A stretch of 64,000 nucleotides of DNA from Malacoraja senta. Taxonomy: Eukaryota. Under the pieces are notes generated by a model, which saw only the letters and a list, made by a program, of their open reading frames with translations, made no database searches and was not told where the DNA came from. The translations under genes and the position numbers were made by a program. The stretch is taken from contig CM075996.1 in the NCBI GenBank assembly GCA_038087875.1, positions 2,482,001 to 2,546,000 of the forward strand, read 5' to 3'. Position 1 is the stretch's first letter; every line of letters begins with the position of its first letter. Below are positions 2,064 to 54,820 of this stretch, in pieces.

Positions 2064-3578
2064 AAAAGGTAGATATAAATGCTGGAGAAACTCAGCGGGT
2101 GCAGCAGCATCTATGGAGCGAAGGAAATAGGCAACGTTTCGGGCCGAAACCCTTCTTCAGACTGATAGGGGGTCGGGAGAAGAAAGGAAAAAATACGGAG
2201 GAGGAGCCCGAGGGCTGGGGGATGGGAGGAGACAACCAGAGGGCTGATGAAGGGGAGGGGACAGCAAGGGCTAGCAGAGTTGGGAGAATTCAATGTTCAT
2301 GCCCCCAGGATGTAGACTGCCCAAGCGGAATATGAGGTGCATTTCCTCCAATTTCTGGTGTTGCTCGCTGTGGCCATGGAGGAGACCCAGGACAGAGAGG
2401 TCAGATACGGAATGGGAGGGGGAGTTGAAGCGCTGAGCCACCGGGAGGTCAGGTTGGTTATTGCGGACCGACCGGAGGTGTTCGGCGAAACGATCGCCAA
2501 GCCTCCGCTTGGTCTCACCGATGTAGATCAGCTGGCATCTAGAGCAGCGGATGCAATACATGAGGTTCGAGGAGATGCAGGTGAACCTCTGTCGCACCTG
2601 GAACGACTGCTTAGGTCCTTGAATGGAGTCGAGGGGGGAGGTGAAGGGACAAGTGTTGCATCTCTTGCGATTGCAAGGGAAAGTACCCGGGGAGGGGGTG
2701 GTACGGGAGGGAAGGGAAGAATTGACAAGGGAGTTACGGAGGGAGTGGTCTTTGCGGAAGGCAGACATGGGGGGAGATGGGAATATGTGGCGAGTGGTGG
2801 GATCACGTTGGAGGTGGCGAAACTGACGGACGATCACTTGTTGTATGTGACGGCTGGTGGGTGAAAGGTGAGGACTAGGGGGACTCTGCCCTTGTTGTGA
2901 GTGGGGGAATGGGGAGAGAGAGCAGTGTTGCGGGGTATGGCAGAGACCCTGGTGCGAGCCTCATCTATGGTGGAGGAGGGGAACCCCCGTTCCCTGAAGA
3001 ATGAGGACATTTCGGATGCCCTGGTGTGGAACGCCTCATCCTGGGAGCAGGTGCGGCGTAGACGGAGGAATTGGGAGTGGGGGATAGAGTCCTTACAGGA
3101 AGCAGGGTGGGAAGAAGTGTAGTCCAGATAGCCACGGGAGTCGGTAGGTTTGTAATGGATGTCGGTAAGAAGTCTATCACCTGCGATGGAGATAGTGAGG
3201 TCAAGGAATGGTAGGGAAGTGTCGGAAATGGTCCAGGTGTATTTGAGTGCCGGATGGAAGTTGGTGGTGAAGCGGATGAAGTCAGTCAGTTGTGTGTGGG
3301 TGCAGGACGTGGCACCAAAACAGTCATCGATGCAGCGGAGGTCGGGGATGGGGCCCAGGTACGTATTGAACAAGGATTGTTCTACGTACCCGACAAAGAG
3401 GCAGGCGTAGCTGGGGCCCATGCGTGTGCCCATAGCTACGCCTTGTATTTGGAGGAAATAGGAGGAGTCAAATGAGAAGTTATTGAGGTAAGGACCAGCT
3501 CCGCTAGGCAGAGGAGGGTGTCAGTGGCCGGGTATAGGTTGCTTCTCTGGTTGAGGAAAAACCGGAGGGCTTTGACTA
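2064..3578 (-). mobile_element. 5'-truncated Penelope-like element (RT C-half plus GIY-YIG endonuclease), decayed
   Basis: ORF 2834-3433 has MGTRMGPSYACLF, RCIDD and LPFLD (PLE RT). ORF 2271-2837 has CNRKRCNTC and YCIRC..C..IYIGETKRRLGDRFAEH (GIY-YIG). A single frameshift at ~2860 separates them. TSD AGTTTACAAC at 2054-2063 and 3579-3588. Confidence 0.92.
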
Positions 3579-3744
3579 AGTTTACAACTAAGTTGTGCAG
3601 GAAGGGACTGCAGATGTTGGTTTAAACCGAAGATACACAAAATGCTTGAGTAACTCAGCGGGCAGGCAGCATCTCTGGAGAGAAGGAATGGGTGACGTTT
3701 CGGGTCGAGACCCTTCAGGCTGAATAGCCTAATTCTACTCCTAT

Positions 3745-4074
3745 AAGCCCTGTCTCACGGTACGAGTTCATTCCAAGAGCTCTCCAGAGTTTAAAAAAAA
3801 TCAAACTCGTGGTAAGCACGGAGAATGAACGTAGCGGGTACGTCGGAGCTCGAGGACGTCTCTTAGCGGCTCGTAACGCTAACGGCAGGTACTTGGGAAG
3901 ACTCGCTAACGGCAGGTAAGCACGGGAAGACTCGTGAAGATTTTTCAACACGTTGAAAAATGTCCACGAGAGCCCCGAGTACTGACGAGTGGCCATTGCC
4001 GTAAATCTCCAAGTTCGAATCAGGGCAAACTCGGGATAACTCTTGGAATGAACTCGTACCGTGAGACAGGGCTT
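3745..4074. mobile_element. MITE with terminal inverted repeats (Harbinger-like)
   Basis: AAGCCCTGTCTCACGGTACGAGTTCATTCCAAGAG and its exact reverse complement at the other end. Confidence 0.8.
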
Positions 4075-5567
4075 TTAGTCTCATAGTCTAATCTAGCAGT
4101 TATGAATACCGCCCAACCAAATGTTAATAATTTTTGGAACTTCAACCATGTTATTGGAGATAATGTCCCTCACTCTGGCCAACAAAAATTATTACTGATA
4201 GACACAAAATGCTGGAGTTACTATCCCAGTCTGAAGAAGGGTCTAGATCTGAAAAGTCACTCATTCCTTCTCTCCAGAGATGCTGCCTGTCCTGCTGAGT
4301 AATTCCAGCATTTTGTGTCTATCTTCGGTTACAGCAAAGTTATACTAATTTAACCAACAGAAGAAATGATCTGGCTATGGCAAACAATGAAAGTATTAAA
4401 ATGTCCTAAAAAGGAACTACAGTTGCTGGTTTCAACCAAAGATAGACACAAAATGCTGGAGTATCTCAACAGGTCAGGAGTATCTCTGGAGGAAATGGAC
4501 AGGTGACGACCCTACTTTAGACTGATTGTAGTGGGGTGGGATTGGAGGTGGGGTCGGGACAGCATGCGAGGGGCGAAAAACAGGACAAATCGGGTCGGGC
4601 AGATGACCTCGGGCAAGGAGGTTCCCTGATAGGCTGATTGTTGGCAAGAGGCTGTGTGAGCCCAAGATAAAATCAGTATTAGATCAAAAGATTTTTTTTT
4701 TTTTACATTGCCAAAATGTGCAGTAAATCTGAGGATTACTGGATTTCAGGCCACAGTAAAGAGAGGGTAAAAGATTGATAAGGGAAAGTGGAATGTGAGT
4801 AATCTAGTGGGAAACATAAAGACCATGAAAGCTTCAAAATGTGAAAAGGAAAGATTAGCTAAAGTTGATGCAAATTCATTCAGGAAGGTTTATTGATGAA
4901 TAAAGATATGGCAGAAAAATCAAATAAATAATTTATAACCAGTCTTCAATGAAGCTAAAATAAGGTGGTAAAATAAATTAGCATTTTTTAAAATTTATTT
5001 TGGTCCAATTAATTTCTCCAATTAAATCTCAAGACCTGATAACTTGTATCCCAAGGTTCTGAAAAAGCTATCTTCAGAAATACAGAATGCACTGAAAATC
5101 AATTTCCGAAACTATTATTCAAGTACAAAGTTAGCAAATATAATCTCGCTATTTGAGAAGAATGTGGAGAGAAAACTAGAAGCTGCCAGTTTATGGAGTG
5201 TTAACAGTTTTAAGTGGTGGCTATGCTTTGACTTCGCAATGCTTTGATGAACCATGCTAGGAATTATACTTTAAAAATATAGTTGAGATGGAAACTCGAG
5301 ATCCTAAAGGCAATATGTCTAGGGTGCTTATTGTTTTCAATGTGGCCGAATCAATGGCATCTAGAAACCTATGTTAATGCAAAGTGAAATAAAGACTGGT
5401 TATAGATTAAGCCAGAGTATTGCTTCAGAACTATGAAGAGAAAATGAGATGGAAAGGTGTTGGTCAAATTGGATTATTGTTACGTGCACCAAATTGCTGC
5501 CAAAAAATATTTTTTTGTGTACTATGTGGTCAAATCATGCCATACATGAGTGCAATCCAATAGGCAT

Positions 5568-5983
5568 AGACAATAGGTGCAGGAGTAGGCCATTTGGCCC
5601 TTCAAGCCAGCACCGCCATTCAATGTGATCATGGCTGATCATCCCCAATCAGTACCCTGTTCCTGCCTTCTCCCCATATTCCTTGAATCCGCTATCTTTA
5701 AGAGCACCATCCAGCTCTCTCTTGAAAGTATCCAGAGAACCTGCCTCCACTGCCCTCTGAGGCAGAGAATTCCACAGATTCACCACTCTCTGTGAGAAAA
5801 AGTGTTTCCTCGTCTCCGTTCTAAATGGCTTACTCCTTATTCTTAAACTGTGGCCCCTGGTTCTGGAATCCCCCAACACCGGGAACATGTTTCCTGCCTC
5901 CAGCGTGTCCAAACCCTTAACAATCTTATATGTTTCAATAAGATCCCCTCTCATCCTTCTAAACTCCAGAGTGTACAAGCCCA
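5568..5983 (-). mobile_element. CR1 LINE 3' fragment
   Basis: GLYTLEFRRMRGDLIETYKI...TRGHSLR...FSQRVVNLWNSLP, followed by the cctattgtcta tail. Confidence 0.9.
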
Positions 5984-6509
5984 CTCCAATCCAATCATAC
6001 ACATGTATGACAAATAGTGCCACAGAGGAAAATAAATAGTGTGGAATATTGTGTTGCAGCGACGGAGAGAATGCAATTTAAAAACAAAAATGCAATGGCT
6101 GCTATGAGGTGTGTTGGATGATCGGGAATATACCCGTAGCTTGAGAGAGGTCCGTTGCATCGCCTGATAATAGTGGGGAGAAATGTTGTTTCTGAATCAA
6201 GTGGGACGTGCTTTCAAACATTTGCATCTTCTGCACAATGGGAGAGGGAGGAGGAGGAGAAAATGTCCATAAAACACGTGAGTAGAATTGGGCTGTTCAC
6301 ATCATCAAGTCTACTCTGAATGGACCTTGATTATGTGGGCCACTTTCCCTAGGCAGCATGAAGTGTAGATGGAGTCGGTTTGGGGAGGGGGAGGCGTGGA
6401 TTGTAAAAGATGTGACAGGAAAAGTGCCTCCTTCATAATGTGCAGTTAGAATAATCTAAATTGGAGTTAAATATTCAAAATTCACACTCCCTATATGAGA
6501 GTTAATATG

Positions 6510-6988
6510 GTCAAGAAGGAACTGCAGATGCTGGAAAATCGAAAGTAGACAAAAGTGCTGGAGAAACTCAGCGGGTGCGGCAGCATCTATGGAGCAAAGG
6601 AAATAGGAAACGTTTCGGGCCGAAACCCTTCTTCAGACTGGTGGGGGGGGGGTGTTGGGAAGAAGAAAGGAAGAGGAGGTGCCAGAGGGCTGAGGGAGAG
6701 CTGTGAAGGGGAGGAGACAGCAAGGGCTACCTGGAAATTGGAGAAGTCAATGTTCATGCCGTTGGGGTGTAAACTGCCCAAGCGGAATATGAGGTGCTGC
6801 TCCTCCAATTTCCAGTGGTGCTCACTCTGGCCATGGAGGAGGCCCAGGACAGAAAGGTCGGATTCGGAATGGGAGGGGGAGTTTAGGTGCTGAGCCACCG
6901 GGAGATCAGGTTGGTTATTGCGGACCGAGTGGAGGTGTTTGGCGAAACGATCGCCAAGCCTACGCTTGGTCTCACCTATGTAGAGTGG
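6510..6988 (-). mobile_element. Penelope-like element 3' fragment
   Basis: GIY-YIG C-terminus (KLEEQHLIFRLGSLHPNGMN) plus terminal repeat. TSD GAGAGTTAATATG at 6497-6509 and 6989-7001. Confidence 0.9.
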
Positions 6989-8334
6989 GAGAGTTAATAT
7001 GTTAGGAGCATCCCGTTGAATGGAATCTGACCTCTTTTGTTAATCAGCTGCAGAAACCATTGGGATTAGAGGTGGGAACCATGTGGTTGCCGTTCTATCT
7101 AGGGATTTGTGGTTGGGTAAGGGTGTGGTATGGTGGTAGTAGGAATATATTTGCCTGAGTAGCCGAAAAAATCTGGTTGCTAGTATATGTGACATTCACA
7201 AATGCGTTATGCTCGCGCTATGGTTACTATAGTCAAATTTCATCAAGCTCATGATGCCAAAATCCTGTTAATAAGCCTGGATTAATTGGTTTCAACCTGT
7301 GGTGAAAACTTTCACCCTCCCCATAACTGCCCATACTGACCCAGCTAAATTGACTTTAAACAGCCGTTCTGCCGTGAGGAAATGTTTTTTTAATTTCTGT
7401 CCTAGAGCCAGTGTTCCCAAGTCTCATAGAATTACATACGGTGCATGACACAGAAATGAACCATTCAGCCGGACCAGTCTTATTGGCATTTATGTTTTAC
7501 TTCAGCTGCTTCCTGTCTTTCTGCATTGAAATCTTTCAGCATAATACTCCTTAATTAGTTTATTCATCCTCCCTCTTAAATGCATCCAGACTTTGCTTCC
7601 CTGTGGTAGCAGGTTGTACATTCTCATGTCTCTTGTACAAATCGAGTGCGACGCCCCACTTTGGATTCCCCTTGAAATGAGAGCATTTCCTTGCTTAGCT
7701 GCATCACCGGAGAGAGGCAGTCAGTCTTGCAGAGACTTGTATGTGATATCTACTTCCTCTTTGTTAAGAATGTTGTGCTGTCACTTCCCCTGCTTTATCC
7801 TTGTGCTTCCAGTTCGGAGGCTGTATTCTGCACCATCAACCCTCCTCCACGATGTTCTGTACTTTGCATTTTTTGTTGTGCCATTCCAAATGGGAGCATG
7901 AAAAGATTTTCGTATCCAAAATTGCGTCAGTCATGATTGTGCTTTCTTCTTCCTCCCTTCTTGCCGATTTGCTTCCATGATCATTTCCTGTTCTCTCATT
8001 CAAAATCTGACGTTATTACCTAAACCCTGGGGCCTTTATCTGCTCCCCCTGTTCCTTCCGGCTCATGTTTCCGTTCTGAGTGTGGTTGGTGACATTATCA
8101 GCTGTCTTTGATAAAATCTCTACCACCATAAAAATACAACAATTCAAAATAATCGTGAACCTTGCTCTCTTAATGCTCTATATAATCTGCCTTTTCTACA
8201 CTTTAGCACAATTGTTGCTCGGCACCGTCATGCCATTGGCCCCTGAAAGATTTTCTTCCTCTTGTGGCTGCAAATATGTGATCTTTCATTTTCAATTTAA
8301 AGATTAAATATTAAAAAGCAATAACTGCGACAGC

Positions 8335-8575
8335 TGGCACAGTGGTGCAGCGGTAGAGTTACTTCCTTACAGCACCAGAGACCTGGGTTCGATCGTGACT
8401 AAGGATGCTGTCTGTACGTTCTCCCTGTGACCAGTGTGCTCTGGTTTCCTCCCACTCTCCAAAAACGTACCAGTTTGTAGGTTAATTGGCTAGTAAATTG
8501 TACATTTTCCCTCGTGGGCGCTGGTCAGCGCGGACTCAAGGGCCTGTTTCCACACCCTATCTGGAAAGTCGAAAG
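8335..8575 (+). mobile_element. tRNA-derived V-SINE (HE1-like), decayed
   Basis: A box TGGTGCAGCGG, B box GGGTTCGATC, V-domain-like ggtttcctccca, and gggcctgtttcc tail. Confidence 0.8.
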
Positions 8576-9421
8576 TTAAGGCTGTATTGACTGGATGTGG
8601 AAGCTTGGAGTTTGCCCACGTCTCGCTGTCACCCAGCTTGCCTTCCTGCTCCATCTTGAAACCAAGACATACTCGGCTCCAACTGTTCTTTCCAACTCTA
8701 AGATGAATTAAAATTTCCAGTTCAAGGTCGGAACTCCAGCCCTAACAACCCCCCCTATACGTCTTTCCACTTGATCTAAAGCTCTGATCCCCTCTCAGCA
8801 AAGTTCACTAATACAAAGCCCGGAGTTGTCCTCCTGTTGAGTCTTTATAGTCGTACAGCACAGTAACAGCTTGCTGCACACTGACCATTCTCACCATATT
8901 CTCCTCAGCTCTCCCCACGTTCACCCACTCATCTGCACACTAGGGGCAATTTACCTAGCTGGGAGGAAACTGCAGCACCCAAATGGAACCTATGTAGTCA
9001 CAGGGAGTGGATGCGAATTCCTTGCAGGCCAGGATTCAACCTGGGTCGCAGGAAATGCAGGGTCCATGAGTTGCACCACTGTGTCTGGATAGTGGCACAA
9101 CCTGCTGTGTTGCCTGCATGGTGCTGTCTGTTCCATCCTTACCATGTTGAAACCTCAGTGTCTAAACTTTCCTCTACCACATTGTGGGCATGGCTCTTAA
9201 TTCAGGATGACAGAAATATATTGTAGTTTTCTGAAATGCTATCCAGCTATAATTATTGATAATTTGGAGCATAATCCCCATGCCGTGTCGATTTTCATCA
9301 CCAATTTAAACCCCTGAGATGCCTTCAGCCCTATTCCTGCTTGAAATTGGTTGTTCATTGGCTTAATTTCCATGTTTCTGCATTTCAACTGGGTTATCTC
9401 TGACTATGATTCATATTGATG

Positions 9422-9645
9422 TTTAAGAAAGAGCTGCAGATGCTGGAAAAATCGAAGGTAGACAAAAATGCTGGAGAAACTCAGCGGGTGAGGCAGCATC
9501 TATGGAGAGAAGGAATAGGTGACGTTGTGGGTCATTGTGCACTACACAGTCTGAAGAAGGGTGTCGACCCGAAACGTCGCCTATTCCTTCGCTTCATAGA
9601 TGCTGCCTCACCCGCTGAGTTTTTCCAGCTTTTTTGTCTACCTTT
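9422..9645. mobile_element. Fold-back short Penelope-derived element
   Basis: Inverted arms. Intact core CTGAAGAAGGGTGTCGACCCGAAACGTC at 9551-9578. Confidence 0.85.
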
Positions 9646-10393
9646 GATTTTGAAATGTTCAGCAGCATTAGTTGCTGTTGTGGATATGATAATCAGTAAC
9701 TCCTGCTTGACTTGGTGTTTTCTGCAATGTTACTGGGATAGAAGGTACAAATGGGCTGAAAAGTTTGGTTGAAGTACATGAGCCGGTGTTATTTGGAGTG
9801 GGTGGCTGAGGTTGTAAAGTAGCTCAAAACATTTTCAAAGCAGGATGTGGGAGAGAGTTTAAAAAGGTGACAGAATGAAGATGCTGAACAAATGTATGCA
9901 CCAAGTTAAGCTTAATGTTGGTAACATTTCTGGATATTTTGCATGCTGCTAACTTCGGTTAAATTGCAATGCTCTGCAAAAAATTGAATACAAAATGTGA
10001 TTGAGTTAACAGTAAAGAGTAAAATGATTGTAACAAAATGGCTTCCAAAGATTTTCCTATTCATTGGCTTTAAGGAAAGTTAAATGATTTGCGTGTTGTC
10101 TGCACCATCACGAAACTATTTGAATGAGTTTTCCTTCCAAGCTTGTGGTTCAATCTTAGAACCCTGCCTAATATGGTTGAGGTTGAAGCAGTAGGGTTAG
10201 GCCTTGACTGGTCACATTTCTCCTAGACTCGTCAAATATCTACAGCTTATCTGTAGTTATGGTTGTCAAAGGCATTGCTTGCTTGAATACAGGGTGGAGG
10301 GAAAACATTCAGCAGCTCTGATTGCTGCAATTGATGGGAATAGGCTCAGGATGAAATTGGGATTTTAATTGCTGCTCTAGTTAATCTTCCTAA

Positions 10394-10878
10394 AGGGCCT
10401 GTCTCACGAGCATGCGACTGCATGCGGCTAGCGTGACCTAACGTGGTCGCGCTAGCCGTGCGGCCTCGCGGGGCCGGTCCCACTTCGATCGCCGGAGCCG
10501 CATGGAGCTGGTCTCGACATCGTGCGGGGCTCTGAAAAACTGACACTGTTCAAAAATTCCGCGCGGCAAAGGCCTGCCGGCCTTCTGCCGCATGGAGGCC
10601 GCACGCACCGCCTCAACGCCGTACGCAGCGTCTTGGCGGCGTAAGCCTAGTGCGTGGCGTTGCGCGATGACGTCACCGCCCGGCGTGCCGTTGCATGATG
10701 ACGTAACCGCCCGACGCCTCCTGCCCAGCTGATTGAGTTTGATGTCGGGACCAGCTCCGCAGAACTCCAGACGGCTCTGCGGTTGGAAGTGGGACCGGCC
10801 CCGCGAGGCCGTACGGCTCAAGCCACCACGTTTGGTCGCGCTAGACGCATGCAGTCGCATGCTGGTGGGACAGGCCCT
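10394..10878. mobile_element. GC-rich palindromic MITE (PIF/Harbinger-like)
   Basis: TIR AGGGCCTGTC(T/C)CAC, long imperfect inverted arms, TAA/TTA flanks. Confidence 0.82.
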
Positions 10879-11380
10879 TTACTCTTTGCTCGGCTCACCT
10901 CCCGAATAATCAGTAGTGTGACATTTTGGGAGAAGAACATTGTTTCTATCTTAATGCTCCAATAACTCACTGGGTCAGGCAGCATTTCTGGAGAACATCA
11001 ACTTTGTGAGATGTGGTTACAGGAGGAAAGATAACATGATGAAAAGGAGGATCAGAAAGGAAATTTGACAACGCAGCAAAGTTGCCAGTTTCTCTTCTCT
11101 TTTGCAGATGGTGTTTGAGACAATGCTAGACTGGGGTATTTGTGTTGGTAGTGCAAGTGTGGGTTTTGGAACATGTATGTGCTTGGTTATTAGTGTGAGT
11201 AGAATACCAACCAAATGACTCAACCAAATGTTTTAGAAAACTGCAGATTGACGTCACCTATTCCTTCGCTCCATAGATGCTGCCTCACCCGCTGAGTTTC
11301 TCCAGCATTTTTGTCAACCAAATGTTTCCGTATTTTGTGGCTCCGTCTAAAGCACCTTGTCTAATAGTGTTGGATTAACA

Positions 11381-11690
11381 AGCGGCATGGTGGTGCAGCG
11401 GTAGAGTTGTTGCCTTACAGTGCTTGCAGCACCGGAGACCCGGGTTCGATCCTGGCTACGGGTGCTTGTCTGTACGGAGTTTGTACGTTCTCCCCATAAC
11501 CTGCATGGGTTTTCTACGAGAACTTCGATTTCCTCCCACACTCCATAAGAAGTACAGGTTTGTAGGTTAATTGGCTTGGTATAAATGTAAAAATTGTCCC
11601 ATGTGTAGGATAGTGTTAATTTGTGGAGATCGCTGGTCGGTGTGGATGCGGTGGGCCAAAGGCCCTGTTTCCGCGCTGTAACTCTAAAAA
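11381..11690 (+). mobile_element. tRNA-derived V-SINE (HE1-like)
   Basis: A and B boxes, V-domain, CR1-like tail. Confidence 0.88.
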
Positions 11691-13017
11691 ATCAAAAATT
11701 GTATGGTTATCATATCCATTTGTTGAGTCTTCACTGAGGATAATTACAGATAGGTTACAGTTTACACATGACCAAGTCCATTTTTTTTTGAGGTAGAGAC
11801 AACGAACTGAAAATGCTAGAATCTTGAGGGAAGTACAAAATGCTCCAGTAACTTAGTGGGTCAGGCAGCATTTCTGGAGAACATAGATAGGTGATGTTTT
11901 GGGTTGGGACCCTTCCTCAGCGGGTTGGGACCTTCAACATCTGAAGAAGGGCCCTGATCTGAAACGTCACCTATCCATGTTCTGCAGAGATGCTGCCTGA
12001 CCTGCTGAGTTACTCCAACACTTTGCGTATTTTTCTGAGGTGTCTGATTGAGGTAAGAAATATTAAGCTAGATGTTCCTTTCCTCAATTAGATACATCAA
12101 AAAAAGTTATGAATCAAGGGGGCAGCTAGTTGAGCATAAGATGAGTGGATTCAAACTTGGGAATTGCAGGGACCAGAGGAATAGGGGGAGGAATGGGATG
12201 GGAGAAAGCAAGGGCTTAGGTTCCAGTCAATAAAACACAGTGCCACCAAACAGTAGTTCAAGGAATGGGTTGACGTTTGATCCACGAGGGACCCACTGAT
12301 GTCACACTTCTTTTACAACACACCACACCTAGTGAATGCCAGAAGAAAGGACAATATGTACATTGGCAGGTTTTCTTGGTCTCAGTTTTTATATGCTTTG
12401 TAGACGATCATGAGTATTTTATTGTGAAGGTCATCCTTCGTTCATTAGAAAAAATGGTAAGCATTGACATGTTCTGATGAGTTTATCTTTTCCATTGGGC
12501 AGATAAAAGTACTCCATAACCATAATATTGTTTTACTTACTGACCATCCCTAATGTGGTCAATGCTACAGGTGAGGGTTTGGCTTTGATAAGCAAATCGT
12601 TGGACAAAGGCCAGACATGAAAAGACAAAAAGTGGTGGCATAAGAATAGAAGTCTGAAGAAGGGTCCTGACATATAGCATCACCTATCCATGTTTCAAGA
12701 AATGCTGCCTGACCTGCTGAGTTGGTCCAGCACTTTGTGTCTTTTTTTGTAAACCGGCATCTGCAATTCCTTGCTTATACGTATGTTTATATATTTTAAG
12801 AGAGGAACTGTAGATAGACTCAAGGAGCTGGTGTAACTCAGCGTGACGGGCGGCATCTCTGGAGAGAAGGAATGGGTGAGAACCTCTTCAGACTGGTGGT
12901 TGACCAGAAACGTCACCCATTCCTTCTCTCCAGAGATGCTGCCTGTCCCACTGAGTTACTCCAGCATTTTGTGTCTATCTTTGGTTTAAACCAGCATCTG
13001 CAGTTCCTTCCAACACG

Positions 13018-38737: not shown

Positions 38738-38803
38738 TGGCTAAACGAGGAGAAAATTATCCAGAGACTCATCGAGATGATCTACCATTCCAAAGATGAG
38801 GAT
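38738..38803 (+). CDS. PPP6R1: PPP6R1 coding exon 4
   Basis: cacag|TGG...GAT|gtaagt, 66 nt. WLNEEKIIQRLIEMIYHSKDED. Confidence 0.95.
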
Positions 38804-45036: not shown

Positions 45037-45202
45037 GTCTGATCTGGGTGGTATGAGTGGGCTTTTCTGCAATATCGATGGGCAGATGGATCTGTGCCCC
45101 CCAGGAATGGACCATGCCTGTAGCCAGGTTAGCACGGGAACCCTCCAGGCCATCAAGCTGAGGCTGCAAGACTTCCATCAGCTCCTCCTTGACCCACCAA
45201 AG
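45037..45202 (+). CDS. PPP6R1: PPP6R1 coding exon 7
   Basis: cctag|G TCT...AAG|gtaggc, 166 nt. SDLGGMSGLFCNIDGQMDLCPPGMDHACSQVSTGTLQAIKLRLQDFHQLLLDPPK. Confidence 0.92.
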
Positions 45203-46600
45203 GTAGGCCGGAAGATAATTTTATGACGAGGTCCAGAGCTTTATTTCTACATTTCCAGATTACCTTATCATCATCTGCTTTGATCTGTCGTTTTCCCACC
45301 TTGCCCTTCCATACCTCTAGACTCACTCTTCCCTGACTCTCAGTCTGAAGAAGGGTCCCGACCTGAAACGTCGCCCATTCCTTCTCTCCAGAGATGCTGC
45401 CTGTCCCGCTGAGTTACTCCAGCTATTTGTGTTTATCTCCAGAGCTCTTCAACTTGTGCGTGCATAATAGACAATAGACAATAGGTGCAGGAGTAGGCCA
45501 TTTGGCCCTTTGAGCCAGTACCCCCATTCTATGTGATCATGGCTGATCATCCCCAATCAGTACCTCGTTCCTGCCTTCTCCCCATATCCCCTGACTCCGC
45601 TATTTTTAAGATCCCTATCTAGCTCTCTCTTGAAAACATCCAGCTAACCGGCCTCCACCGCCCTCTGAGGCAGAGTAGACTGTTATGTGGCCGTGAAGAA
45701 CTGGAAAAGCCCATTGTGCACCCCATCCTGTCTTGATTTCATCTTGATTCCATAATCCTTGACGCTCTTGATTCAAGACCAAGCGATACGCTGGAGATTA
45801 AGGACAGAGGTTGACGAGAGACTTGATAGAAGTACATAAAATTACGAGAGGCGTAGGTAGGGTCGACGGTCAGTATATCTCCAAAGACCTACAGTTTGTA
45901 GGTTAATTGGCTTGGTGTAAATGTAAATTGTCCCTAGTGTGTGTAGGAGAGTGTTAGTGTGTGGGGATCGCTGGTCGGCGCAGACTCGGTGGGCCGAAGG
46001 GCCTGATTCCGCGCTGTATCTCTAAACTAAACTAAATCTTTTTCCCTGGGTGGAAATGTCCAACACTAAAAATGCATGGCTATAATGTGAGTGGGGAAAG
46101 TTTAATGGAGATGTGTGGGGCAAGATTTTTACACAGAGAGTGGTGAGGCCTGGGACGCGTTGCTCGGGGTGGTGGTGGAGGCAGATACCACAGTGACGTT
46201 CAAGAGGCTTTTATATAGGCACAGATCTTTAGCATTTCCACACTGGGGATAAAGTTCTGACTGTCTACCATCTTTCTCCCTCTTGAATGAATGAATGAAT
46301 AAGTTTATTGGCCAAGTATATTCACATACAAGGAATTTGCCTTGGTGCTCCACCCGCAAGTGACAACATGACATACAGTGATAGTGAGTGTATGTAGTTC
46401 TATCAGATTTCCCCTCAAACCCTGGCATCTCAACAGGACCTATTGACTAATAACAGTTTGAGAGCAATGGGCTCCCTCCTCTCCCTTTCATGCAGAGGGC
46501 ATGAAAAAGTCTCATAATTGGACTCTAAAGGATGGTGGGTGTTTGGAATAAGCAGCCAGAGGAGGTGTTTGAGGCAAGGGCAATCCCATCATTTAAGAAA

Positions 46601-47150
46601 CAATAGACGATAGGTGCAGGAGTAGGCCATTCGGCCCTTCGAGCCAGCACCGCCATTCAATCTGATCATGCCCAATCAGTACCCCGTTCCTGCCCTCTCT
46701 CCATATCCCCTGACTCCGCTATTTTTAAGAGCCCTATCTAGCTCTCTCTTGAAAGCATCCAGAGAACCTGCCTCCACCGCCCTCTGAGGCAGAGAATTCC
46801 ACAGACTCACCACTTGCTGTGAGAAAAAGTGTTTCCTCGTCTCCGTTCTAAATGGCTTACTCCTTATTCTTAAACTGTAGCCCCTGGTTCTGGACCCCCA
46901 ACATCGGGAACAGGTTTCCTGCCTCTAGCATGTCCAAGCCCTTAACAATCTTATATGTTTCAATAAGATTCCCTCTCATCCTTCTAAACTCCAGAGTGTA
47001 CAAGCCCAGCTGCTCCATTCTCTCAGCATATGACAGTCCCGCCATCCAGGGAATTAACCTTGTAAACCTACGCTGCACTTCCTCAATAGCAAGAATGTCC
47101 TTCCTCAAATTAGCGGACCAAAACTGCACACAATACTCCAGGTGTGGTCT
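46601..47150 (-). mobile_element. CR1 LINE 3' fragment nested in another CR1
   Basis: QFWSANLRKDILAIEEVQRRFTRLIP...LEFRRMRG. Confidence 0.9.
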
Positions 47151-47399
47151 CAGTTAGACAGGTACATGGATAGGACAGGTTTGGAGTGATATGCACCAAG
47201 CGCAGCCAGCTGGGACATGTTGGCCGGTGTGGGCAAGTTGGGCCGAAGGGCCTGTTTCCATGCTGTATCACTCTATAACTCTAATTACTAACGGACACTT
47301 GGAAAAAAAACAGCTTCTGAATGGAGACAACGCAGGTTTTATTTTGTGGCCTCATTCTTGCCTCAGCATATATATTTTTTCTATTTCTTCTTTTCGTAG

Positions 47400-47551
47400 A
47401 AAAATAAAATGGTGACGACCTGGGGCACCCTGGATCCACCACTGGGAAACACACGGCTTCATGTGGTCAAACTCGTCACTAGCATCTTGCAGGTGAACAA
47501 CGGCATTGTGAATCAAGAGTTGATGGAGTTAACACACTGGACGTTCTTCTG
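47400..47551 (+). CDS. PPP6R1: PPP6R1 coding exon 8 (1 nt short; -1 frameshift at ~47531)
   Basis: cgtag|AAA...TG|gtgagt, 152 nt. KNKMVTTWGTLDPPLGNTRLHVVKLVTSILQVNNGIVNQELMEL, then TTA AC ACA CTG GAC GTT CTT CTG, which gives (N)TLDVLL only if one A is restored. Confidence 0.93.
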
Positions 47552-48407
47552 GTGAGTATGAGGTGGTCTCTCCTGTACTGCCCATTGCAGAAACAAGTAA
47601 TCGAATGAAACTAATCCATGTTCTAACATAAGCAGAGAGTGTACTGCATAAGTTCCATAAAATACCATCTTTGGGACTGAGTAAAATCAATTTCCCTGTT
47701 GAAGAAGGACCCGTGTAGCATTTTCAAAAAAAGCTGGATGATTTCTTGAAAAGGAGAACATTACAAAGCCATGATATGTATTATCTATTCAAGGCACAAG
47801 AAACTGATGAATAATACAGTGACACTAGTGTAGTTCTCATTGTGTACAAAATCATGAGAGGAATAGATCGGGTCTCTTGCCCAGAGTAGGGGAATCGAGG
47901 ACCAGAGGACACGGGTTCAAGGTGAAGGGGAAAAGATTTAATAGGAATCTGAGGGGTAACTTGTTCACACAAAGGGTGGTGGGTGTATGGAACAAGCTGC
48001 CAGAGGAGGTAGTTGAGGCTGGGACTATCCCATCGTTTAAGAAACAGTTAGACAGGTACAGGTGCTGCCTGAGTTGCCCCATCTAAGCTCATACTATTTT
48101 CCTGTATTTGGCCATATTCCTCTAAACCTTTCTTGTACATGTACCTGCCCAAATATCTTTTAATTGTTGTTATAGTACCTGCCTCAATCACCTCCTCTGG
48201 CAGCTCGCTCCATATACCTACCACCCTCTGTGTGAAAAAGTTATCCCTCAGGTTCATATTAAAACTTTCCCCTCTTATGTTAAAATTATGCCCTCTAGTT
48301 CTTGATCCCCCTACCCTGGTTAAGGACTACATTCACCTATCTATTCCCCTCAAGATTTTATACACCTCTATGAGATCAACCCCACCCCCCACCCTGTGTC
48401 AGTCTAA

Positions 48408-48611
48408 TGGGCCTGTCCCACTTAGGCGATTTTTCAGGCGACTGTCAAGTTGAAAAATTCATGGCGACCATAATGAGGCCGCAACTAGTTCCCAGAATGC
48501 GGGAACTCCTCACGACCATGAAGGCAACTCCCCTGCAACCACCCGCGAACATGTGGCGACCACATAGTCTCCTGCAGTCGCCTAAAAAGTCGCCTAAGTG
48601 GGACAGGCCCT
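48408..48611. mobile_element. Harbinger-like MITE inside a CR1 fragment
   Basis: TIR GGGCCTGTCCCACTTAGGCGA and its reverse complement; TAA/CAA flanks. Confidence 0.82.
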
Positions 48612-49219
48612 CAAGGAATGAAGTAGCAGCCTGCCCAACCTCCCCCTTATAGCTCAGGGCAAGTTTAGTGTTGTTTAGTTTATCATTGTCATGTGTACTG
48701 AGATACAACAAGAAGCTTTTGTTTGAATGCTATCCAGTCAAAGAAAAGACTATACAACCAAGCCGTCCACAGTGCAAGGATAGAGGATAAAGGGTAACAC
48801 CCAGTGTAAGATATAACAATGAAGTCCAATGAAGTCTGATTAAAGATGGTTCAAAGTCTCCAATGAGTTAGGTGGGAGGTCAGGACTGCTCTCCACTGAT
48901 CACAGGACCGTTCTGATGTCTGATAAAAGCTGGGACGAAACTCTCTGAATCTGAAAGGTGTGCCTTTTCAAATTTCTGTATCTCTTGCCTAATGGGAGAG
49001 GGGAGAAGTGGGAGTTACCAGGGGTGAGACTGGTCCTTGATTATGGCCTTGCCGAGACAGCGTGAAGTGTAGATGTGGTCAATGGAAGGGAGGTTGGTTC
49101 GTGCGACTGGTCTGGGAAACACTCCGCAATTTCTTGACCAGTTGACCGGTTGTCATAATCCTACCTTTGTGTGTTTTCTTTCCACTCTACACCCATATTC
49201 GTTATTTTTCTGTCACCAG

Positions 49220-49388
49220 GATCTCTTCTTCAAATACGTTTGGAATAACTTCCTTCACTTGCAAGTGGAGCTGTGTATCAGCACGGCACTGGGCAACCCT
49301 CCAGCAGAAGATAGCACTGAAAGTAACATGGAAAAGCACACTGAGAACAACTTTTGAGTCCACTCAAGATAACACACTCATCAGACAT
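49220..49388 (+). CDS. PPP6R1: PPP6R1 coding exon 9 (1 nt long; +1 frameshift, probably at TTTT 49352-49355)
   Basis: accag|GAT...CAT|gtatgt, 169 nt. DLFFKYVWNNFLHLQVELCISTALGNPPAEDSTESNMEKHTENNF reaches TGA; the shifted frame gives ESTQDNTLIRH up to the donor. Confidence 0.92.
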
Positions 49389-50503
49389 GTATGTAAACTG
49401 TGATTAACCAAGAGGCGTGCGTTTATTAAATGCATAATAATCAGACTGCTGCGAAGCTTGTGTTGGAAGGGACTGCAGATGCTGAAGATGGACACAAAAA
49501 TGATGGAGTAACTCAGCGGGACAGGCAGCATCTCTGGACAGAAGGAATGGGCGAGACCCTTCTTCAGACAGAGTCAGGGGAGAGGGAGATAAGGAAGTTA
49601 AGGTGTGAGAACGAGACGTCAAAGGCAATGAAGGTCTAGGAAAATGTAGATCATTGTGGAATTCTCTGCCTGTCTGTGGAATTCTCTGCCTCAGAGGGCG
49701 GTGGAGGGCGGCGGTTCTCTGGATGCTTTCAAGAGAGAGCTAGATAGGGCTCTTAAAGATAGCGGAGTCAGGGGATATGGGGAGAAGGCAGGAACGGGGT
49801 GCTGATTGGGGATGATCAGCCATGATCACATTGAATGGCGGTCGAAGGGCCAAATGGCCTACTCCGGCACCTATTGTCTATTGTTAACTAGGAGAAGGTG
49901 ACAACAAAGCAAACAGATCAAATGTAATCAGGGGGACAGTCGGACTGGTCGGAGAACTGGGGAGGGATGGAGATTTTCAGTGGGGATTAACCAGAGATGG
50001 TGGCTCAGGATGGGGCAGGCCTGGCATTGGTGGCAAGGGTATGTTTTTGTGGGAGAACCAAAGTCTTTGTGTGACGTTTCACTTGAGGCATGTGTGGTCC
50101 ACGTGGGTATGTCAGAAAGGCCAGGCAGATACCCCAGAGGCAGCAACAGGATCAGTAGAGCAGGTGGTCAAGTCAAGTCAAGTGAGTTTATTGTCATGTG
50201 TCCCTGGTAGGACAATGAAATTCTTGCTTTGCTTGAGCACAACAGAACATAGTAGGCATTTACTACAAGGCATTCTATAAATATATACACAATGGTCAAT
50301 ATACTGATAAAGTGCAAATAACAGTATTGGCTAGTAAAGTTCAGTGTTATGTCCGAGCCAGGTTTAATAGCCTGATGGCTGTGGGGAAGTAGCTGTTCCT
50401 GAACCTGGTCGTTGCAGGTGGTGAAGTAGAGTTGGGTGTTCTCAGCGTACATGCGCACCTCGAGTTTCTGATCTTTAATCCATTTTTTTCTTTTCCACGT
50501 CAG

Positions 50504-50568
50504 CTCTTCGAGAAGTGCCAGTTGATGCACAGAGTAGTGTCCGCCTGGGAGGAAAATGAAAAAATCCA
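50504..50568 (+). CDS. PPP6R1: PPP6R1 coding exon 10
   Basis: gtcag|CTC...CA|gtaagt, 65 nt. LFEKCQLMHRVVSAWEENEKIQ. Confidence 0.93.
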
Positions 50569-50582
50569 GTAAGTATCCAGTA

Positions 50583-50870
50583 ACGGGCCATTCGGCCCAA
50601 CGAGTCCATGCCAACCAGCGATCACCCCTTTACACTAACACTATCGTACATGCTGAGGACTTTTTTTAAAACAATTTTTACCGAAGCCAATCTGCAAACA
50701 ATTTTTACCAAAGCCAATCTACAAACCTGCACGTCTTTGGAGTGTTGGAGGAAACCGGAGCACCCGGAGAAAACCCACCTGGTCACAGGGAGAACTCTGT
50801 ACATGCAGCATCTGTAGTCAGGATGGAACCCGGGTCTCTGCCGCTGTAAGGCGGCTGCCGCTGTGCCGCC
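50583..50870 (-). mobile_element. HE1-like SINE starting 15 nt after the exon 10 donor
   Basis: Reverse-complement SINE body. Confidence 0.78.
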
Positions 50871-51680
50871 CAAAGTTGTTTCCATTTGTGCTCGCTCAGG
50901 CTTTTGGTTGCATTGCCAACATCACGCTGGGAGTGGTGTACGGGCGAAATGAAGAGCGCAGAAAGCAGAAAATTACAGTGTACTTAAAATGGATCAATTA
51001 AGTAAAACCACTTGCAATGATGCACGTTCTGGGAAGAAATAAAAATTGCCTTTGCATCTGTTTTATATGGAAATCTAAAAATAGGATCACGTGAAAGTTG
51101 CTAATTTAGATCCATGGAATAAATTGCAAAGAGGACTTGGGTATGTTGAACCCTATGACAGATGGTTAATCTGCTTGAGTTTGAATTGCTCCATCCACTC
51201 AGAACTGCCCCAAGGACTGTTGGCTCTCTGTAGCATCTGGCAACTGAATCATCCTACCACAACCAGAGAGCAGTCCTAAACTATTATCTACCTCAGCAGA
51301 GACCCTTGAACTATCCTTGGTCGGACTTTGCTGGCTTTGCCTTGCACTAAACGTTATTCCCTTATGTATCTACACACGGTAATAGCTCGATTGTAATCAT
51401 GTATTGTCTTGCCGCTGACTGGATAGCACACAACAAGTGCTTTTCACTGTACCTCGGTAAACTTGACAATAAACTAAACTGAAACTGAAATCTGAAACAT
51501 TCAAGGTGCCATTCTGGTCCATAGCCACTCTTTGAAGGGGCTGCCTAGTTAATGCAGTCACGGCATTGCTCGTCACTACCGTGCCCCTCCCTCCCCCCCT
51601 TCCCTCTCTCCATCTCCCTCCCCCCTCTCTCCACCCCCCCCCCTCCCTCCCGGAAAGATTTTGGCCATCTCTTTAATTTT

Positions 51681-52010
51681 GGGTGGCACAGGGCGGTCAC
51701 AGTGGCGCAGCGGTAGAGTTGCTGCCTTACAGCAAATGCAGCGCCAGAGACCCGGGTTTGATCCCGACTACGGGTGCTGCCTGTACGGAGTTTGTACCTT
51801 CTCCCCGTGACCTGCGAGGGTTTTCTCCGAGATCTTCGGTTTCCTCCCACACTCCAAAGACGTACAGGTTTGTAGGTTAATTGGCTTGGTAAATGTAAAA
51901 ATTGTCCCTACTGGGTGTAGCGGAGTGTTAATGTGTGGGGATCGCTGGTCGGCGCGGACCCGTTGGGCCGAAGGGCCTGTTTCCATGCTGTACCTCTAAA
52001 CTAAACTAAA
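51681..52010 (+). mobile_element. Near full-length HE1-like V-SINE
   Basis: A box TGGCGCAGCGG at 51703, B box GGGTTTGATCC at 51754, V-domain, (CTAAA)n tail. Confidence 0.9.
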
Positions 52011-52205
52011 ATTCCCTTTTGAATGTTGTCATTAAATCCACTTCCTCTGTCCTTTCGGGAAGCGCAACCCATGTTGCAATGTCGAAGATTTCTTCTCATC
52101 CCCATTCGCATTAGCGTGGGAGGAAGCAAGAACTCGGGTTGCTTCATAGAAGTATTTGAGTTAATAATCTGTCTCATTTGTATTCTGCTTGCCTTTGCTC
52201 TTTAG

Positions 52206-52321
52206 GTCAGAAGGTGGTAGGCGGAAAGGGTACATGGGCCATTTAACAAGAATAGCAAATGCCATGGCACAGAACTCGGAAAATGGTCCTAACCAAACTT
52301 CGATAGCACAGCTGATCAAAG
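52206..52321 (+). CDS. PPP6R1: PPP6R1 coding exon 11
   Basis: tttag|G TCA...AAA G|gtaatt, 116 nt. SEGGRRKGYMGHLTRIANAMAQNSENGPNQTSIAQLIK, containing the conserved SAPS GYMGHLT motif. Confidence 0.96.
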
Positions 52322-52569
52322 GTAATTCATAATCGGTCGTCTGACGGTAGAAATCAATATCCAAACTGAGAATCTGTTGATAGACACGGAGTGCTGGAGG
52401 AACTCAGCGGGTCAGACACCATCTCTGGAGAAAAGTGATAGGCGACGTTTCGGGTCGAGACTCTTCTTCAGACTGTCTGTCGTTAATTTGTGCTCCTTCC
52501 ACCTGTTCTACACTTGAGTTCATCAGCTCCTTGCCTCAACAGTAACTACTTTAATTCTAGAGCACTTAT

Positions 52570-53072
52570 CATAGAAACATAGAAATTAGGTGCAGGAGTA
52601 GGCCATTCGGCCCTTCGAGCCTGCACCGCCATTCAATATGATCATGGCTGATCATCCAACTCAGTATCCCGTACCTGCCTTCTCTCCATACCCTCTGATC
52701 CCTTTAGCCACAAGTGCCACATCTAACTCCCTCTTAAATATAGCCAATGAACTGGCCTCGACTACCCTCTGTGGCAGAGAGTTCCAGAGATTCACCACTC
52801 TCTGTGTGAAAAAAGTTCTTCTCATCTCGGTTTTAAAGGATTTCCCCCTTATCCTTAAGCTGTGACCCCTTGTCCTGGACTTCCCCAACATCGGGAGCAA
52901 TCTTCCTGCATCTAGCCTGTCCAACCCCTTAAGAATTTTGTACGTTTCTATAAGATCCCCTCTCAATCTCCTAAATTCTAGAGAGTATAAACCAAGTCTA
53001 TCCAGTCTTTCTTCATAAGACAGTCCAGACATCCCAGGAATCAGTCTGGTGAACCTTCTCTGCACTCCCTCA
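52570..53072 (-). mobile_element. CR1 LINE 3' fragment
   Basis: IEGVQRRFTRLIPGMSGLSYEERLDRLGLYSLEFRRLRGDLIETYKIL. Confidence 0.92.
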
Positions 53073-54289
53073 ATTGAAGGTGAATAGTTATTTCTATTGT
53101 CCATTGCTGAAGGTTAGCAATGCTACCACCTCTTGGAGAAGTTACTGAAACGGAAACCTTGCTATCACATTGTACTCCTAATAGACAATGTGACATGGTC
53201 TAAAATTTGTTTATAATTAAACATTGGGCATCTATGAGGCTGCAGGTGACAGAGAGTTTATGGGGAGACACACAAAGCTCAACCAATAAAACTCATCCAA
53301 AAATTGATTTAGGGCATTGGTTCTTAACCTGGGGGTCGTTTGGGGCTTTGCCAGGGGGCATGAAGAGGACACAAATAGCATATTAATTTGTTGAGGCCAT
53401 GTTTAGGAACCTAACAAAGGTACATACCACATACAGTATTTTGTTCGAGTACTGTTATCAAAAAGTTTAAGAATCACTGATTTAGGGGAAATGGTTATAT
53501 CTAACAAAATGCCTAAAGTAGCTGAAAAAGCCTGAGGATGGGGTATTTTAGAGTTTGGCCAAGGATGATCAAGAAATGAAATTCTATACACTCTCGAACC
53601 GTTCTTGAAGATTGGAGTGTAGCAAATGTGACGTTAATTCAGAAAGAGAAAGCCAACTGCTAGCACAATAGCAGTTTAAAAGAAAGATAGGCATAAAGTG
53701 CTGGAGGAACTCAGCGGGTCAAGCAGCATCTCTGGAGAAAAAGGACAGGTGATGTTTCTGGTCGGAACCCTTTGTCAGACTGAAGAAAGGTCCGATCTGA
53801 AACGTCACCCGTCCTTTTTCTCCAGAGATGCTGCCTGATCCTATTGTCTATTGTCTATTTAGGGCTCTTAAAAATAGCGGAGTCAGGGGATATGGGGAGA
53901 AGGTAGGAATGGGGTACTGATTGGGGATGATCAGCCATGATCACATTGAATGGCGGTGCTGGCTCGAGGGGCCGAATGGCCTACTCCTGCACCTATTGTC
54001 TATTGTCTATTGACCCGCTGAGTTACTCCAGCACTTTATGTCTATCTTTGGTATAAACCAGCATCTGCAGTTCTTTGTTTGCACAGCAGTTTAAAAAAAA
54101 ATGCTGGAAGCAGCAAAATAAAATTGTTATCGTTGTTTTCTTAAGTGGCTAAATTTCTCAGTATTGTTGCAAACAGTCAGCGGTGACAATATCCATGATA
54201 GAGGCTGGAAATAAGAACGGGCAGATTTCCTTGAAAGTGCAACTAACTGATAGACTTAATTTGTGAAGCAAGCTATGGATAGGATGTTA

Positions 54290-54820
54290 CAGAGGTTCAC
54301 CTGCATCTCCTCCAACCTCATCTATTGCATTCGCTGCTCTAGATGCCAGCTGATCTACATCGGTGAGACCAAGCGGAGGCTTGGCGATCGTTTCGCCGAA
54401 CACCTCCGGTCGGTCCGCAATAACCAACCTGACCTCCCGGTGGCTCAGCACTTCAACTCCCCCTCCCATTCCGTATCTGACCTCTCTGTCCTGGGTCTCC
54501 TCCATGGCCACAGCGAGCAACACCGTAAATTGGAGGAAATGCACCTCATATTCCGCTTGGGCAGTCTACATCCTGGGGGCTTGAACATTGAATTCTCCCA
54601 ACTCTGCTAGCCCTTGCTGTCCCCTCCCCTTCATCAGCCCTCTGGTTGTCTCCTCCCCTCCCCCAGCCCTCGGGCTCCTCCTCCGCCTTTTTCCTTTTTT
54701 CCTTTCTTCTCCCCACCCCCTATCAGTCTGAAGAAGGGTTTCGGCCCGAAACGTTGCCTATTTCCTTCGCTCCATAGATGCTGCTGCACCCGCTGAGTTT
54801 CTCCAGCATTTTTGTGTACC
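54290..54820 (+). mobile_element. Penelope-like element 3' fragment (GIY-YIG plus terminal repeat)
   Basis: Near-identical to the 3' part of the 2064-3578 copy. Perfect TSD ATGGATAGGATGTTA at 54275-54289 and 54821-54835. Confidence 0.93.

Follow-up and report, generated by a model that had tools for sequence, protein, structure and literature searches.

A stretch of 64,000 nucleotides from the skate Malacoraja senta, here called the window, carries many short repeats within and around a host gene. An initial annotation had recognized in these repeats, and in the ends of coding copies of Penelope-like elements (PLEs), the core of a minimal type I hammerhead ribozyme. The locus raises the question of whether this motif is a hammerhead belonging to a PLE and how its many short copies were made.

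The motif and the elements that carry it

The window was searched for the hammerhead pattern with up to three mismatches, and 17 matches were found, versus 0 in each of 100 shuffles. All seven core sites cited in the initial annotation matched the pattern, and the core was present in 3/3 coding PLE copies. Coding copy 3 (54290..54820, plus strand) is a 5'-truncated PLE that retains the end of the GIY-YIG region, the UTR, the hammerhead, and a short tail end. Its core (54728..54755, plus strand) is made up of CUGAAGA, an extra A, a 4-bp stem II with a UUCG loop, GAAA, the palindromic ACGU, and U as H17, with the predicted cut on the same strand between 54755 and 54756. Together with the 2-bp helix I, in which 54726-54727 pairs with 54756-54757, the motif spans 54726..54757 (plus strand). 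The consensus for minimal hammerheads (min-HHRs), in the part of PMC4209133 considered here (supplement Fig. S3), reads NNN CUGANGAH, a G...C stem II, GAAAN, a palindrome, NUH, and NNN. The CUGANGA core, the extra residue after A9, GAAA, the palindromic helix III, and NUH were all present in the skate motif. As judged from sequence, the proposed minimal type I hammerhead in PLE termini fits the published consensus.

A profile search recovered 63 hammerhead-plus-tail arms on both strands (447..63475), including 18 head-to-head neighbours. These arms make up 9.1% of the window, and none was found in the reversed window. Only 5/63 arms (C3 at 2160, 6636, 9551, 21507, and 54728) had a complete core whose 4-bp stem II is closed by G10.1-C11.1, and four of these kept both helix I pairs. 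Most of the examples first cited do have intact cores, but the one at 30989 has a G/G mismatch in stem II and the one at 52444-52471 an A/C mismatch. Across 23 copies, 91.3% of the stem II cells were paired. Helix I had been described as only 2 bp long, which proved correct: its two pairs were formed in 26/29 and 27/27 arms, and no extended helix I was found, a third pair being present in 1/20 arms and absent in 19/20. The 15.2-16.2 palindrome, which allows a dimeric helix III, was C-G in 19/29 arms, and 9 of the remaining 10 had CpG-type transitions.

The Rfam check proposed with the annotation was negative: none of the 48 matches with an E of up to 1 was a hammerhead. This result and the shortness of the motif would fit a mere chance resemblance to a hammerhead. 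We consider chance highly improbable, given the lack of matches in the shuffles and the location in a PLE terminal repeat, as published for such motifs. Moreover, 13 unrelated metagenome loci with the core-only pattern, none of them window-like and all taken as chance matches, formed at most 2/4 stem II pairs, whereas the window copies pair at 91%. Viral contigs searched for the motif gave 0 matches. The Rfam matches to miRNAs were below the cut-off and lay mostly on inverted pairs and microsatellites.

In all three coding copies, the hammerhead lies within the 3' terminal repeat (pLTR), downstream of the PLE ORF. Coding copy 1 (2067..3578, minus strand) is a 5'-truncated, frameshifted PLE with the C-terminal part of the RT, a CX4CxxC linker, GIY-YIG, the UTR, and a short tail end; its core (2133-2160, minus strand) is intact, and its target duplication is 13 bp with one mismatch. 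Coding copy 2 (6510..6988, with its core at 6609-6636, both minus strand) belongs to a different subfamily from copy 3 and has a long tail and a 13-bp duplication. Copy 3 is flanked by a 15-bp duplication (54275-54289 and 54821-54835), and its pyrimidine-rich 3' UTR (54611..54727, plus strand) ends in CAG directly before helix I. By consensus motifs, we take this stretch to resemble both a splice-acceptor-like and an initiator-like site. No full-length PLE was seen in the window. The GIY-YIG match in copy 1 was weak (E 0.0011, below the cut-off); in its homologue P0022, RVT_1 and GIY-YIG were both above the cut-off. As in endonuclease-positive PLEs, RT is followed by a C-terminal GIY-YIG in one ORF, and the optional tail, the inverted 5' copy, and the target duplication were all found. 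The linker before the endonuclease in copy 1 fits the CX2-5CxxC form, a Neptune or Nematis trait that is absent in Penelope/Poseidon (PMC8557442). The skate element is likely a PLE of the Neptune type, and an assignment to the Poseidon clade was dropped because of the cysteine linker. An ATG frame is open in several long tails, and the tail was considered as a possible N terminus of the ORF; this gained no support, the best profile score being 5.5 bits and the sole library match an unrelated repeat protein.

The repeats had been placed inside PPP6R1 introns. The host gene encodes a SAPS-domain PP6 regulatory subunit, with coding exons at 21114..61411 (plus strand), most of them 90-100% identical to Amblyraja radiata protein P0106 (residues 1-615 mapped). 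Homologues carry the label 'subunit 3-like' in rays and sharks, and those of chimaera, coelacanth, and tetrapods are called 'subunit 1'; PPP6R1 is a plausible identity from these similarities. The intronic location is supported for 37/63 arms, which lie between host coding exons (21342-61355); 22 arms, including those at 2133, 6609, and 9551, lie upstream of the first coding exon (21114), and 4 lie beyond the last mapped exon.

Conservation and predicted activity

Coding copies 2 and 3 were compared region by region. Identity was 215/249 (86%) in the ORF and 64/113 (57%) in the UTR, and it reached 31/32 in the core plus helix I and 58/63 in the tail. Among the 31 core-spanning arms, which are not independent copies, the majority base was found in 307/328 of the cells at catalytic positions, in 80/111 of those in loop II, and in 366/459 of those immediately past the cut. 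The tail, at 1248/1396 in copies that are likewise not independent, was conserved nearly to the level of the core. All catalytic positions kept the majority base, while N7, H17, and loop II were among the variable positions. Stem pairs held in 92.5% of cells versus 3.8-49.6% when the pairing was slid. The proposed test of stem II covariation found none among the 23 window copies, as the score was reached by 231/500 shuffles. Two-sided changes occurred in 1/133 cells, not above shuffles, and the others were one-sided U-G/U-A changes only. Covariation across genome copies is a weak test, since copies decay once they have inserted. The comparison between subfamilies is the informative one, and it was positive for sequence conservation. 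Given how close the tail comes to the core, this conservation may reflect protein binding and not catalysis.

The min-HHRs of metazoan PLE pLTRs, in the part of Cervera and De la Pena (2014, PMC4209133) considered here, resemble the skate motif in CUGANGA with the extra residue, G10.1-C11.1, GAAA, the palindromic 15.2-16.2, NUH, a short helix I, the U-rich upstream flank, and the terminal-repeat location. They also occur as thousands of solo motifs from truncated copies and as nearby opposite-strand pairs. With a 4-bp stem II and a 2-bp helix I, the skate motif is at the short end of their range; a 2-bp helix I is found in the rows for D. virilis, Culex, and Oikopleura in that part of the alignment. 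The skate core is near-invariant across subfamilies, whereas the same part of the paper stresses high within-genome variability. No cartilaginous fish was among the portion of its Table S1 and Fig. S3 rows covered. The skate motif is a further instance of an already described kind of hammerhead and extends PLE hammerheads to a skate.

Compared by eye, PAc, a Poseidon element of Anolis carolinensis (Frangieh et al. 2024, PMC11167929), shares with the skate the CUGANGA-H core, the GAAACGUC junction, and a short helix I. Two of its stem II pairs are flipped, with C-G for G-C, and such flips were seen only in this comparison. PAc also has two tail end points and insertion from uncleaved RNA, as in our reading of the skate copies. 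It differs in belonging to the Penelope/Poseidon clade, with a start codon at stem II, while the skate element has the CX2-5CxxC linker.

In 11/11 copies, the hammerhead-compatible monomer fold was 2.1-13.7 kcal/mol above the minimum, and in 4/4 copies the active dimer fold was far above the dimer minimum (e.g., -7.1 versus -24.8). RNAalifold favored a rival stem in which GGGU is paired with the four bases after the cut. Given the disfavored active fold and the negative covariation and Rfam results in the window, self-cleavage stays a prediction. Cleavage by the skate hammerhead would require a dimer or the help of the element protein, and most copies in the genome have decayed and are probably inert. 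The motif could also be the descendant of a hammerhead that no longer cleaves and is kept in a protein-binding module for priming. Such a loss would fit the short helices (2 bp in helix I and 4 bp in stem II) with their disfavored active folds, the probable derivation of the copies from uncut RNA, and the behavior of PAc, whose cleavage is dispensable for in vitro insertion and at whose cut site no RNA-seq reads end (PMC11167929). However, every catalytic position keeps its majority base, N7, H17, and loop II vary as they do in working hammerheads, and the similarly built PAc motif cleaves once protein is added; we therefore find a non-cleaving descendant unlikely.

Short copies and their upstream edge

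Only 3/63 arms bear an ORF. The tails stop at either of two points, about 93 or about 126 nt from C3. In 15/18 head-to-head neighbours a long tail was combined with a short one, and two long tails were found in none; when one pair consisting of two separate insertions was dropped, the count was 14/17, again with none having two long tails. In the head-to-head pair at 9425..9642 (both strands), the plus arm has an intact motif (9551-9578) and the minus arm a long tail. At 21416..21827 (both strands), a short minus arm (core 21480-21507) faces three tandem plus heads, the last with a long tail. These plus heads (21548-21827) form the sole head-to-tail tandem in the window, and their cores are degenerate. 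Non-LTR retrozymes (Li, Clavereau and Pollet 2026, bioRxiv 10.64898/2026.07.22.740005), reported in the one chondrichthyan sampled, are likewise non-coding, pLTR-derived, hammerhead-bearing repeats, but their definition calls for at least two tandem units arranged head to tail, every one of them with a full motif. Skate copies are solo or inverted, and no such array was found in the window. PLE insertion units, in which the pLTR is inverted and a tail of 30-40 bp is optional (Arkhipova et al. 2013, PMC3846280; Craig et al. 2021, PMC8557442), resemble the skate copies in head-to-head inverted repeats, junction palindromes, a tail at only one end, target duplications, and solo pLTRs. Unlike these units, most skate units measure just 90-250 bp and terminate at the hammerhead edge, and their target duplications are 12-17 bp versus 8-10 bp in the rotifer examples.

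Target duplications of 13-17 bp had been claimed. A flanking direct repeat scoring at least 9 was found in 15/35 hand-delimited units versus 1.5% of mismatched flank pairs. The repeat at 55571 was a local tandem duplication and not a target duplication, which leaves 14/35 units; the duplications are real, but their range is 12-17 bp. A single short copy at 30987..31081 (plus strand) starts at the helix I 5' strand and has a 16-bp target duplication and one stem II mismatch. Another at 36094..36186 (minus strand) starts inside CUGA and has a 17-bp target duplication. A short copy with a long tail at 24421..24562 (plus strand) has a 12-nt inverted remnant before its head and a 15-bp target duplication.

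The short arms had also been proposed to form a distinct non-autonomous PLE family. They are of several sequence types, and window copies that are short share types with those that bear the UTR, which bears on whether the short ones are a lineage of their own. At least three types (45342, 49569, and 14521) occur both short and with upstream UTR, and the short copies at 30987 and 36094 fall in with the coding-copy type. Furthermore, 6/32 head-reaching arms run on into pyrimidine-rich UTR-like sequence, 3 of these 6 without an ORF in the window. With several subfamilies seen in both forms, the short copies can be explained without a separate non-autonomous family, and that proposal was not supported. 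The short copies look like end fragments of several PLE subfamilies, which may be re-mobilized in trans. They could instead be a SINE-like family with its own masters and an internal promoter, mobilized in trans by PLE protein: they far outnumber the ORF-bearing arms and have a sharp common 5' edge and 12-17 bp duplications. In addition, D. virilis Penelope has an internal TATA-less promoter, according to the part of PMC2377424 considered, which could let a short copy with a long tail act as a transcription unit. We regard such a family as quite unlikely, because the same edge recurs across several sequence types, including the coding-copy type and those also seen with upstream UTR, and because no tRNA-, 5S-, or 7SL-derived head, as in SINEs, was present among the 48 Rfam matches at E up to 1.

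The upstream motif edge (model positions 1-5) was reached by 32/63 arms, most of which stop there, and 0/63 arms started at the cut site (model positions 31-35). The 5' edge of short copies lies 1-4 nt before CUGA, and their 5' ends map to 54725-54727 of copy 3. As the arm profile begins at CAGU, hit starts pile up there by construction, and the edge rests on the upstream-sequence check, the duplication-bounded units, and the run contigs. Loose ends with unlike flanks (agreement 0.33-0.38) pile up before 54725-54727 in the contigs of three runs (X1, X11, and X21), and in all four runs the summed contig depth increases at about 54729; these data are contigs only, which cannot show RNA ends, and the RNA label of X19 and X21 is a guess. 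No cut-site start was among the 24 loose ends listed from the run contigs, and no ORF-end-to-CAG spliced joint was among the 15 joints listed, which does not mean that spliced copies are absent. The likely cause of this pattern is internally primed reverse transcription of uncleaved RNA; short copies stop just before the motif because they were likely copied from uncut RNA. Clustering of 5' ends at the hammerhead edge was seen in the skate copies; the part of the PAc paper's text considered (PMC11167929) contains no report of it.

The edge could also mark an RT stop or template switch instead of an RNA end, whether at the border of a module that is bound or folded, at a splice acceptor occupied by a factor, or by cDNA annealing at the self-complementary CAGnCTG. 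One pair overlaps exactly at CAGnCTG (53777-53781), and others join at stem II. In the parts of PMC4209133 and PMC2377424 considered, an intron of D. virilis Penelope ends at helix I, and the skate element has its pyrimidine tract and CAG at the same place. However, partnerless single arms with their own duplication (30987 and 36094) end at the same edge, the dissimilar flanks of the loose ends argue against a common upstream exon, and the joints listed lack the expected ORF-end-to-CAG junction. An RT stop is possible, with the balance somewhat against it.

A proposed route of insertion

Our preferred reading, which we hold with a probability of about 0.7, is that a skate PLE, likely of the Neptune type, has a minimal type I hammerhead sequence in its 3' terminal repeat and that the short copies are likely end fragments made by reverse transcription of uncleaved RNA. 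By analogy with Anolis PAc, the RT-endonuclease would bind the hammerhead-plus-tail RNA, nick both target strands, and prime internally at one of the two tail sites. Each cut strand would tend to use a different start site, which would give head-to-head pairs whose two tails differ, one being long and the other short. The cDNA would end at the upstream edge since the 5' end of its RNA template lies there, a step to which we give about even odds. This 5' end could be the transcription start or could result from trimming back to the protein-bound part. In a more specific and doubtful version, the initiator-like site 3 nt before CUGA would serve as the start of transcription, and the message would open with a hammerhead whose helix I is at most 2-3 bp. 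A protein dimer would then prime the two strands at different tail sites and copy back to the cap, leaving ribozyme modules of about 100-130 bp over roughly a tenth of the genome. If transcription does start at this site, the copies would be a genome-wide record of the PLE transcription start and of two-strand priming.

As a ribozyme find, the motif is ordinary, since PLE repeats have been known to carry minimal hammerheads since 2014, and the skate form is among the most reduced of them. Its useful side is mechanistic and concerns PLE integration and the role of the hammerhead. The very many copies that end at the edge, never start at the cut site, and are paired long with short make two ideas testable from genome data alone, namely, that the template is uncleaved RNA and that each of the two target strands is primed at a site of its own.

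The hammerhead motif and its coding carriers

To summarize its standing at the outset, the motif is, judging from sequence, a real feature of a kind already known, with ribozyme activity that is only predicted. The hammerhead pattern was present at all seven sites cited in the initial annotation, although the stem was mismatched at 30989 and at 52444-52471; there were 17 matches with no more than three mismatches, and none in 100 shuffles. A profile of the hammerhead-plus-tail module recovered 63 copies (here called arms), which made up 9.1% of the window, and none in the reversed window. In the best copies, written as RNA, C3-U4-G5-A6-A7-G8-A9 and an extra A are followed by a 4-bp stem II with a 4-nt loop, G12-A13-A14, the palindrome A15.1-C-G-U16.1, and H17. 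Helix I was as short as had been noted (2 bp in these copies). The full core and stem were intact in only 5 of the 63 arms, 4 of which had both helix I pairs. The Rfam check proposed earlier was negative, with no hammerhead among the 48 matches at E ≤ 1 in the window.

Three coding copies of a Penelope-like element (PLE), at 2067-3578 (copy 1), 6510-6988 (copy 2), and 54290-54820 (copy 3), were all 5'-truncated, each with a 13- to 15-bp duplication. Their best protein matches came from sharks and rays, and their homologues are about 890 aa at full length, with RT and GIY-YIG domains. A CX4CxxC linker was found in copy 1; according to the available text of Craig et al. (PMC8557442), Neptune and Nematis have such a cysteine linker and Penelope/Poseidon lack it.

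The host gene and neighboring elements

The host gene lies on the + strand and encodes a PP6 regulatory subunit with a SAPS domain. Its coding exons start at 21114 and extend to at least 61411, and most are 90 to 100% identical to an Amblyraja radiata protein, which marks the DNA as that of a skate. For its putative orthologues, databases use the label "subunit 3-like" when the species is a ray or shark and "subunit 1" for chimaera, coelacanth, and tetrapods. In the first coding exon, a short run of A residues (21241-21244) is one base too long, which shifts the frame relative to the A. radiata protein and is possibly an assembly error. The description of a family inside introns held for 37 of the 63 arms, which lie between coding exons, but 22 were upstream of the first exon and 4 after the last one mapped. 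Among the five intact motifs, 54728 is the only one that runs in the sense direction with coding exons on both sides.

The window also holds a Tc1-like transposase fragment (32032-32733, +; HTH_Tnp_Tc3_2, HTH_SB) and long inverted-repeat elements unrelated to the module (61530-62104, 47876-48324, 10391-10881, 60743-60982, and 3741-4078). Three alike ORF ends (5649-6077, 29874-30302, and 52661-53113, −) are, by their look, presumably 3' fragments of CR1/L2 LINEs; Pfam gave no hit in the one scanned. Long CA/TA microsatellite runs (19200-19800 and 40780-40980) produced spurious ORFs and miRNA matches.

Constraint and predicted folding

Both conservation and covariation of the core had been proposed as checks. 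The core was conserved between coding subfamilies, but no covariation was seen in an alignment of 23 copies chosen by hand from the 63 arms. Between copies 3 and 2, identity was 215/249 in the ORF, 64/113 in the UTR, 31/32 in the core plus helix I, and 58/63 in the tail. In contigs from three other coded organisms, matching at 85% likeness nearly missed the UTR but covered the ORF, core, and tail. Across 31 core-spanning arms, the majority base was kept in 307 of 328 cells at catalytic positions and in 80 of 111 in loop II, and many of the base changes were of CpG type. Between coding subfamilies the motif is under constraint; against constraint for catalysis, the tail was conserved nearly as well as the core.

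Folding energies also counted against it. In each of 11 copies, a hammerhead-compatible fold was 2.1 to 13.7 kcal/mol less stable than the minimum, and in each of 4 the energy of the active dimer was much higher than the dimer minimum. The consensus fold was a rival stem employing the four bases just 3' of the cut; at 54756-54759 and equivalent positions, these bases resemble the strand on the 3' side of stem II, giving the preferred rival stem. As modeled, this stem could be an off state relieved by protein binding. For the min-HHR class, the accessible parts of Cervera and De la Pena (PMC4209133) and of Frangieh et al. (PMC11167929) describe low activity that calls for dimers or protein; dimer cleavage was the subject of Lunse et al., as cited in part of a review (PMC6765202).

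Short copies and their 5' edge

The short copies were single arms of 90 to 130 bp or head-to-head pairs of 150 to 250 bp. Target duplications of 12 to 17 bp, close to the 13 to 17 bp first reported, flanked 14 of the 35 units delimited by hand; a fifteenth unit also scored but was set aside as a tandem duplication, and the null rate was 1.5%. Tails ended at two points, about 93 and 126 nt from C3, the first base of CUGA. One long and one short tail were found in 15 of 18 head-to-head neighbors, and two long tails in none; dropping one pair that represented two separate insertions left 14 of 17 (p = 0.006 in a binomial test against one half). Inverted PLE units with a tail at one end are already known (Arkhipova et al. 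2013, PMC3846280), and two tail ends have been tied to two internal RT start sites, with the protein nicking both strands (Frangieh et al., PMC11167929), both as given in the available portions of these papers. Each target strand would tend to prime at a different tail start site. Very small inverted remnants (11237-11250, 24421-24432, and 4197-4222), which separate the main arm from the target duplication or the flank, suggest aborted second-strand priming. At 21416-21827, the opposed arms come from two different subfamilies; this unit has three tandem heads and a flanking direct repeat too weak to pass the threshold (score 7). If it arose in a single event, that event drew on two different RNAs.

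Model positions 1 to 5 were reached by 32 of the 63 arms, of which 6 (7 with one borderline) run on into pyrimidine-rich sequence, the others ending no more than a few bases from CUGA. In contigs from public sequencing runs, loose ends with unlike flanks gathered before 54725-54727, numbering, among the matches listed, 163 in X1, 233 and 292 in X11, and 32 and 25 in X21. Summed depth, which is not copy number, increased near 54729 in each of the four runs; in X1 it went from 2-7 million up to 16-27 million. Because arms end at this 5' edge, no arm in the window (0/63) starts at the predicted cut site, and loose ends in the run contigs pile up at the edge, the inserted copies likely derive from RNA uncut at GUH.

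We favor an RNA 5' end as the cause of the edge, at about even odds, and the site fits the initiator consensus. A splice acceptor also fits, with a pyrimidine tract and CAG at the place given for the end of the D. virilis intron in the accessible text of Cervera (PMC4209133) and Schostak et al. 2008 (PMC2377424); yet the loose ends shared no upstream exon, which makes it less likely that a spliced message was simply copied. Stopping or switching of the RT at the self-complementary CAGnCTG fits as well. Supplementary Fig. S2 of Frangieh et al. (PMC11167929), a paper available in part, may bear on the edge. No published description of the skate motif or of this clustering was found in the literature listings searched, which cover few subscription papers.

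A separate non-autonomous family, as originally proposed, is not required. The short arms span several sequence types; two of these arms match coding copies, and other types occur also with upstream UTR. No tRNA-like head was found among the Rfam matches in the window, and the short copies lacked the tandem arrangement of complete motifs by which retrozymes are defined in the available part of the Li et al. 2026 preprint. Long-tailed short copies may be re-mobilized in trans.
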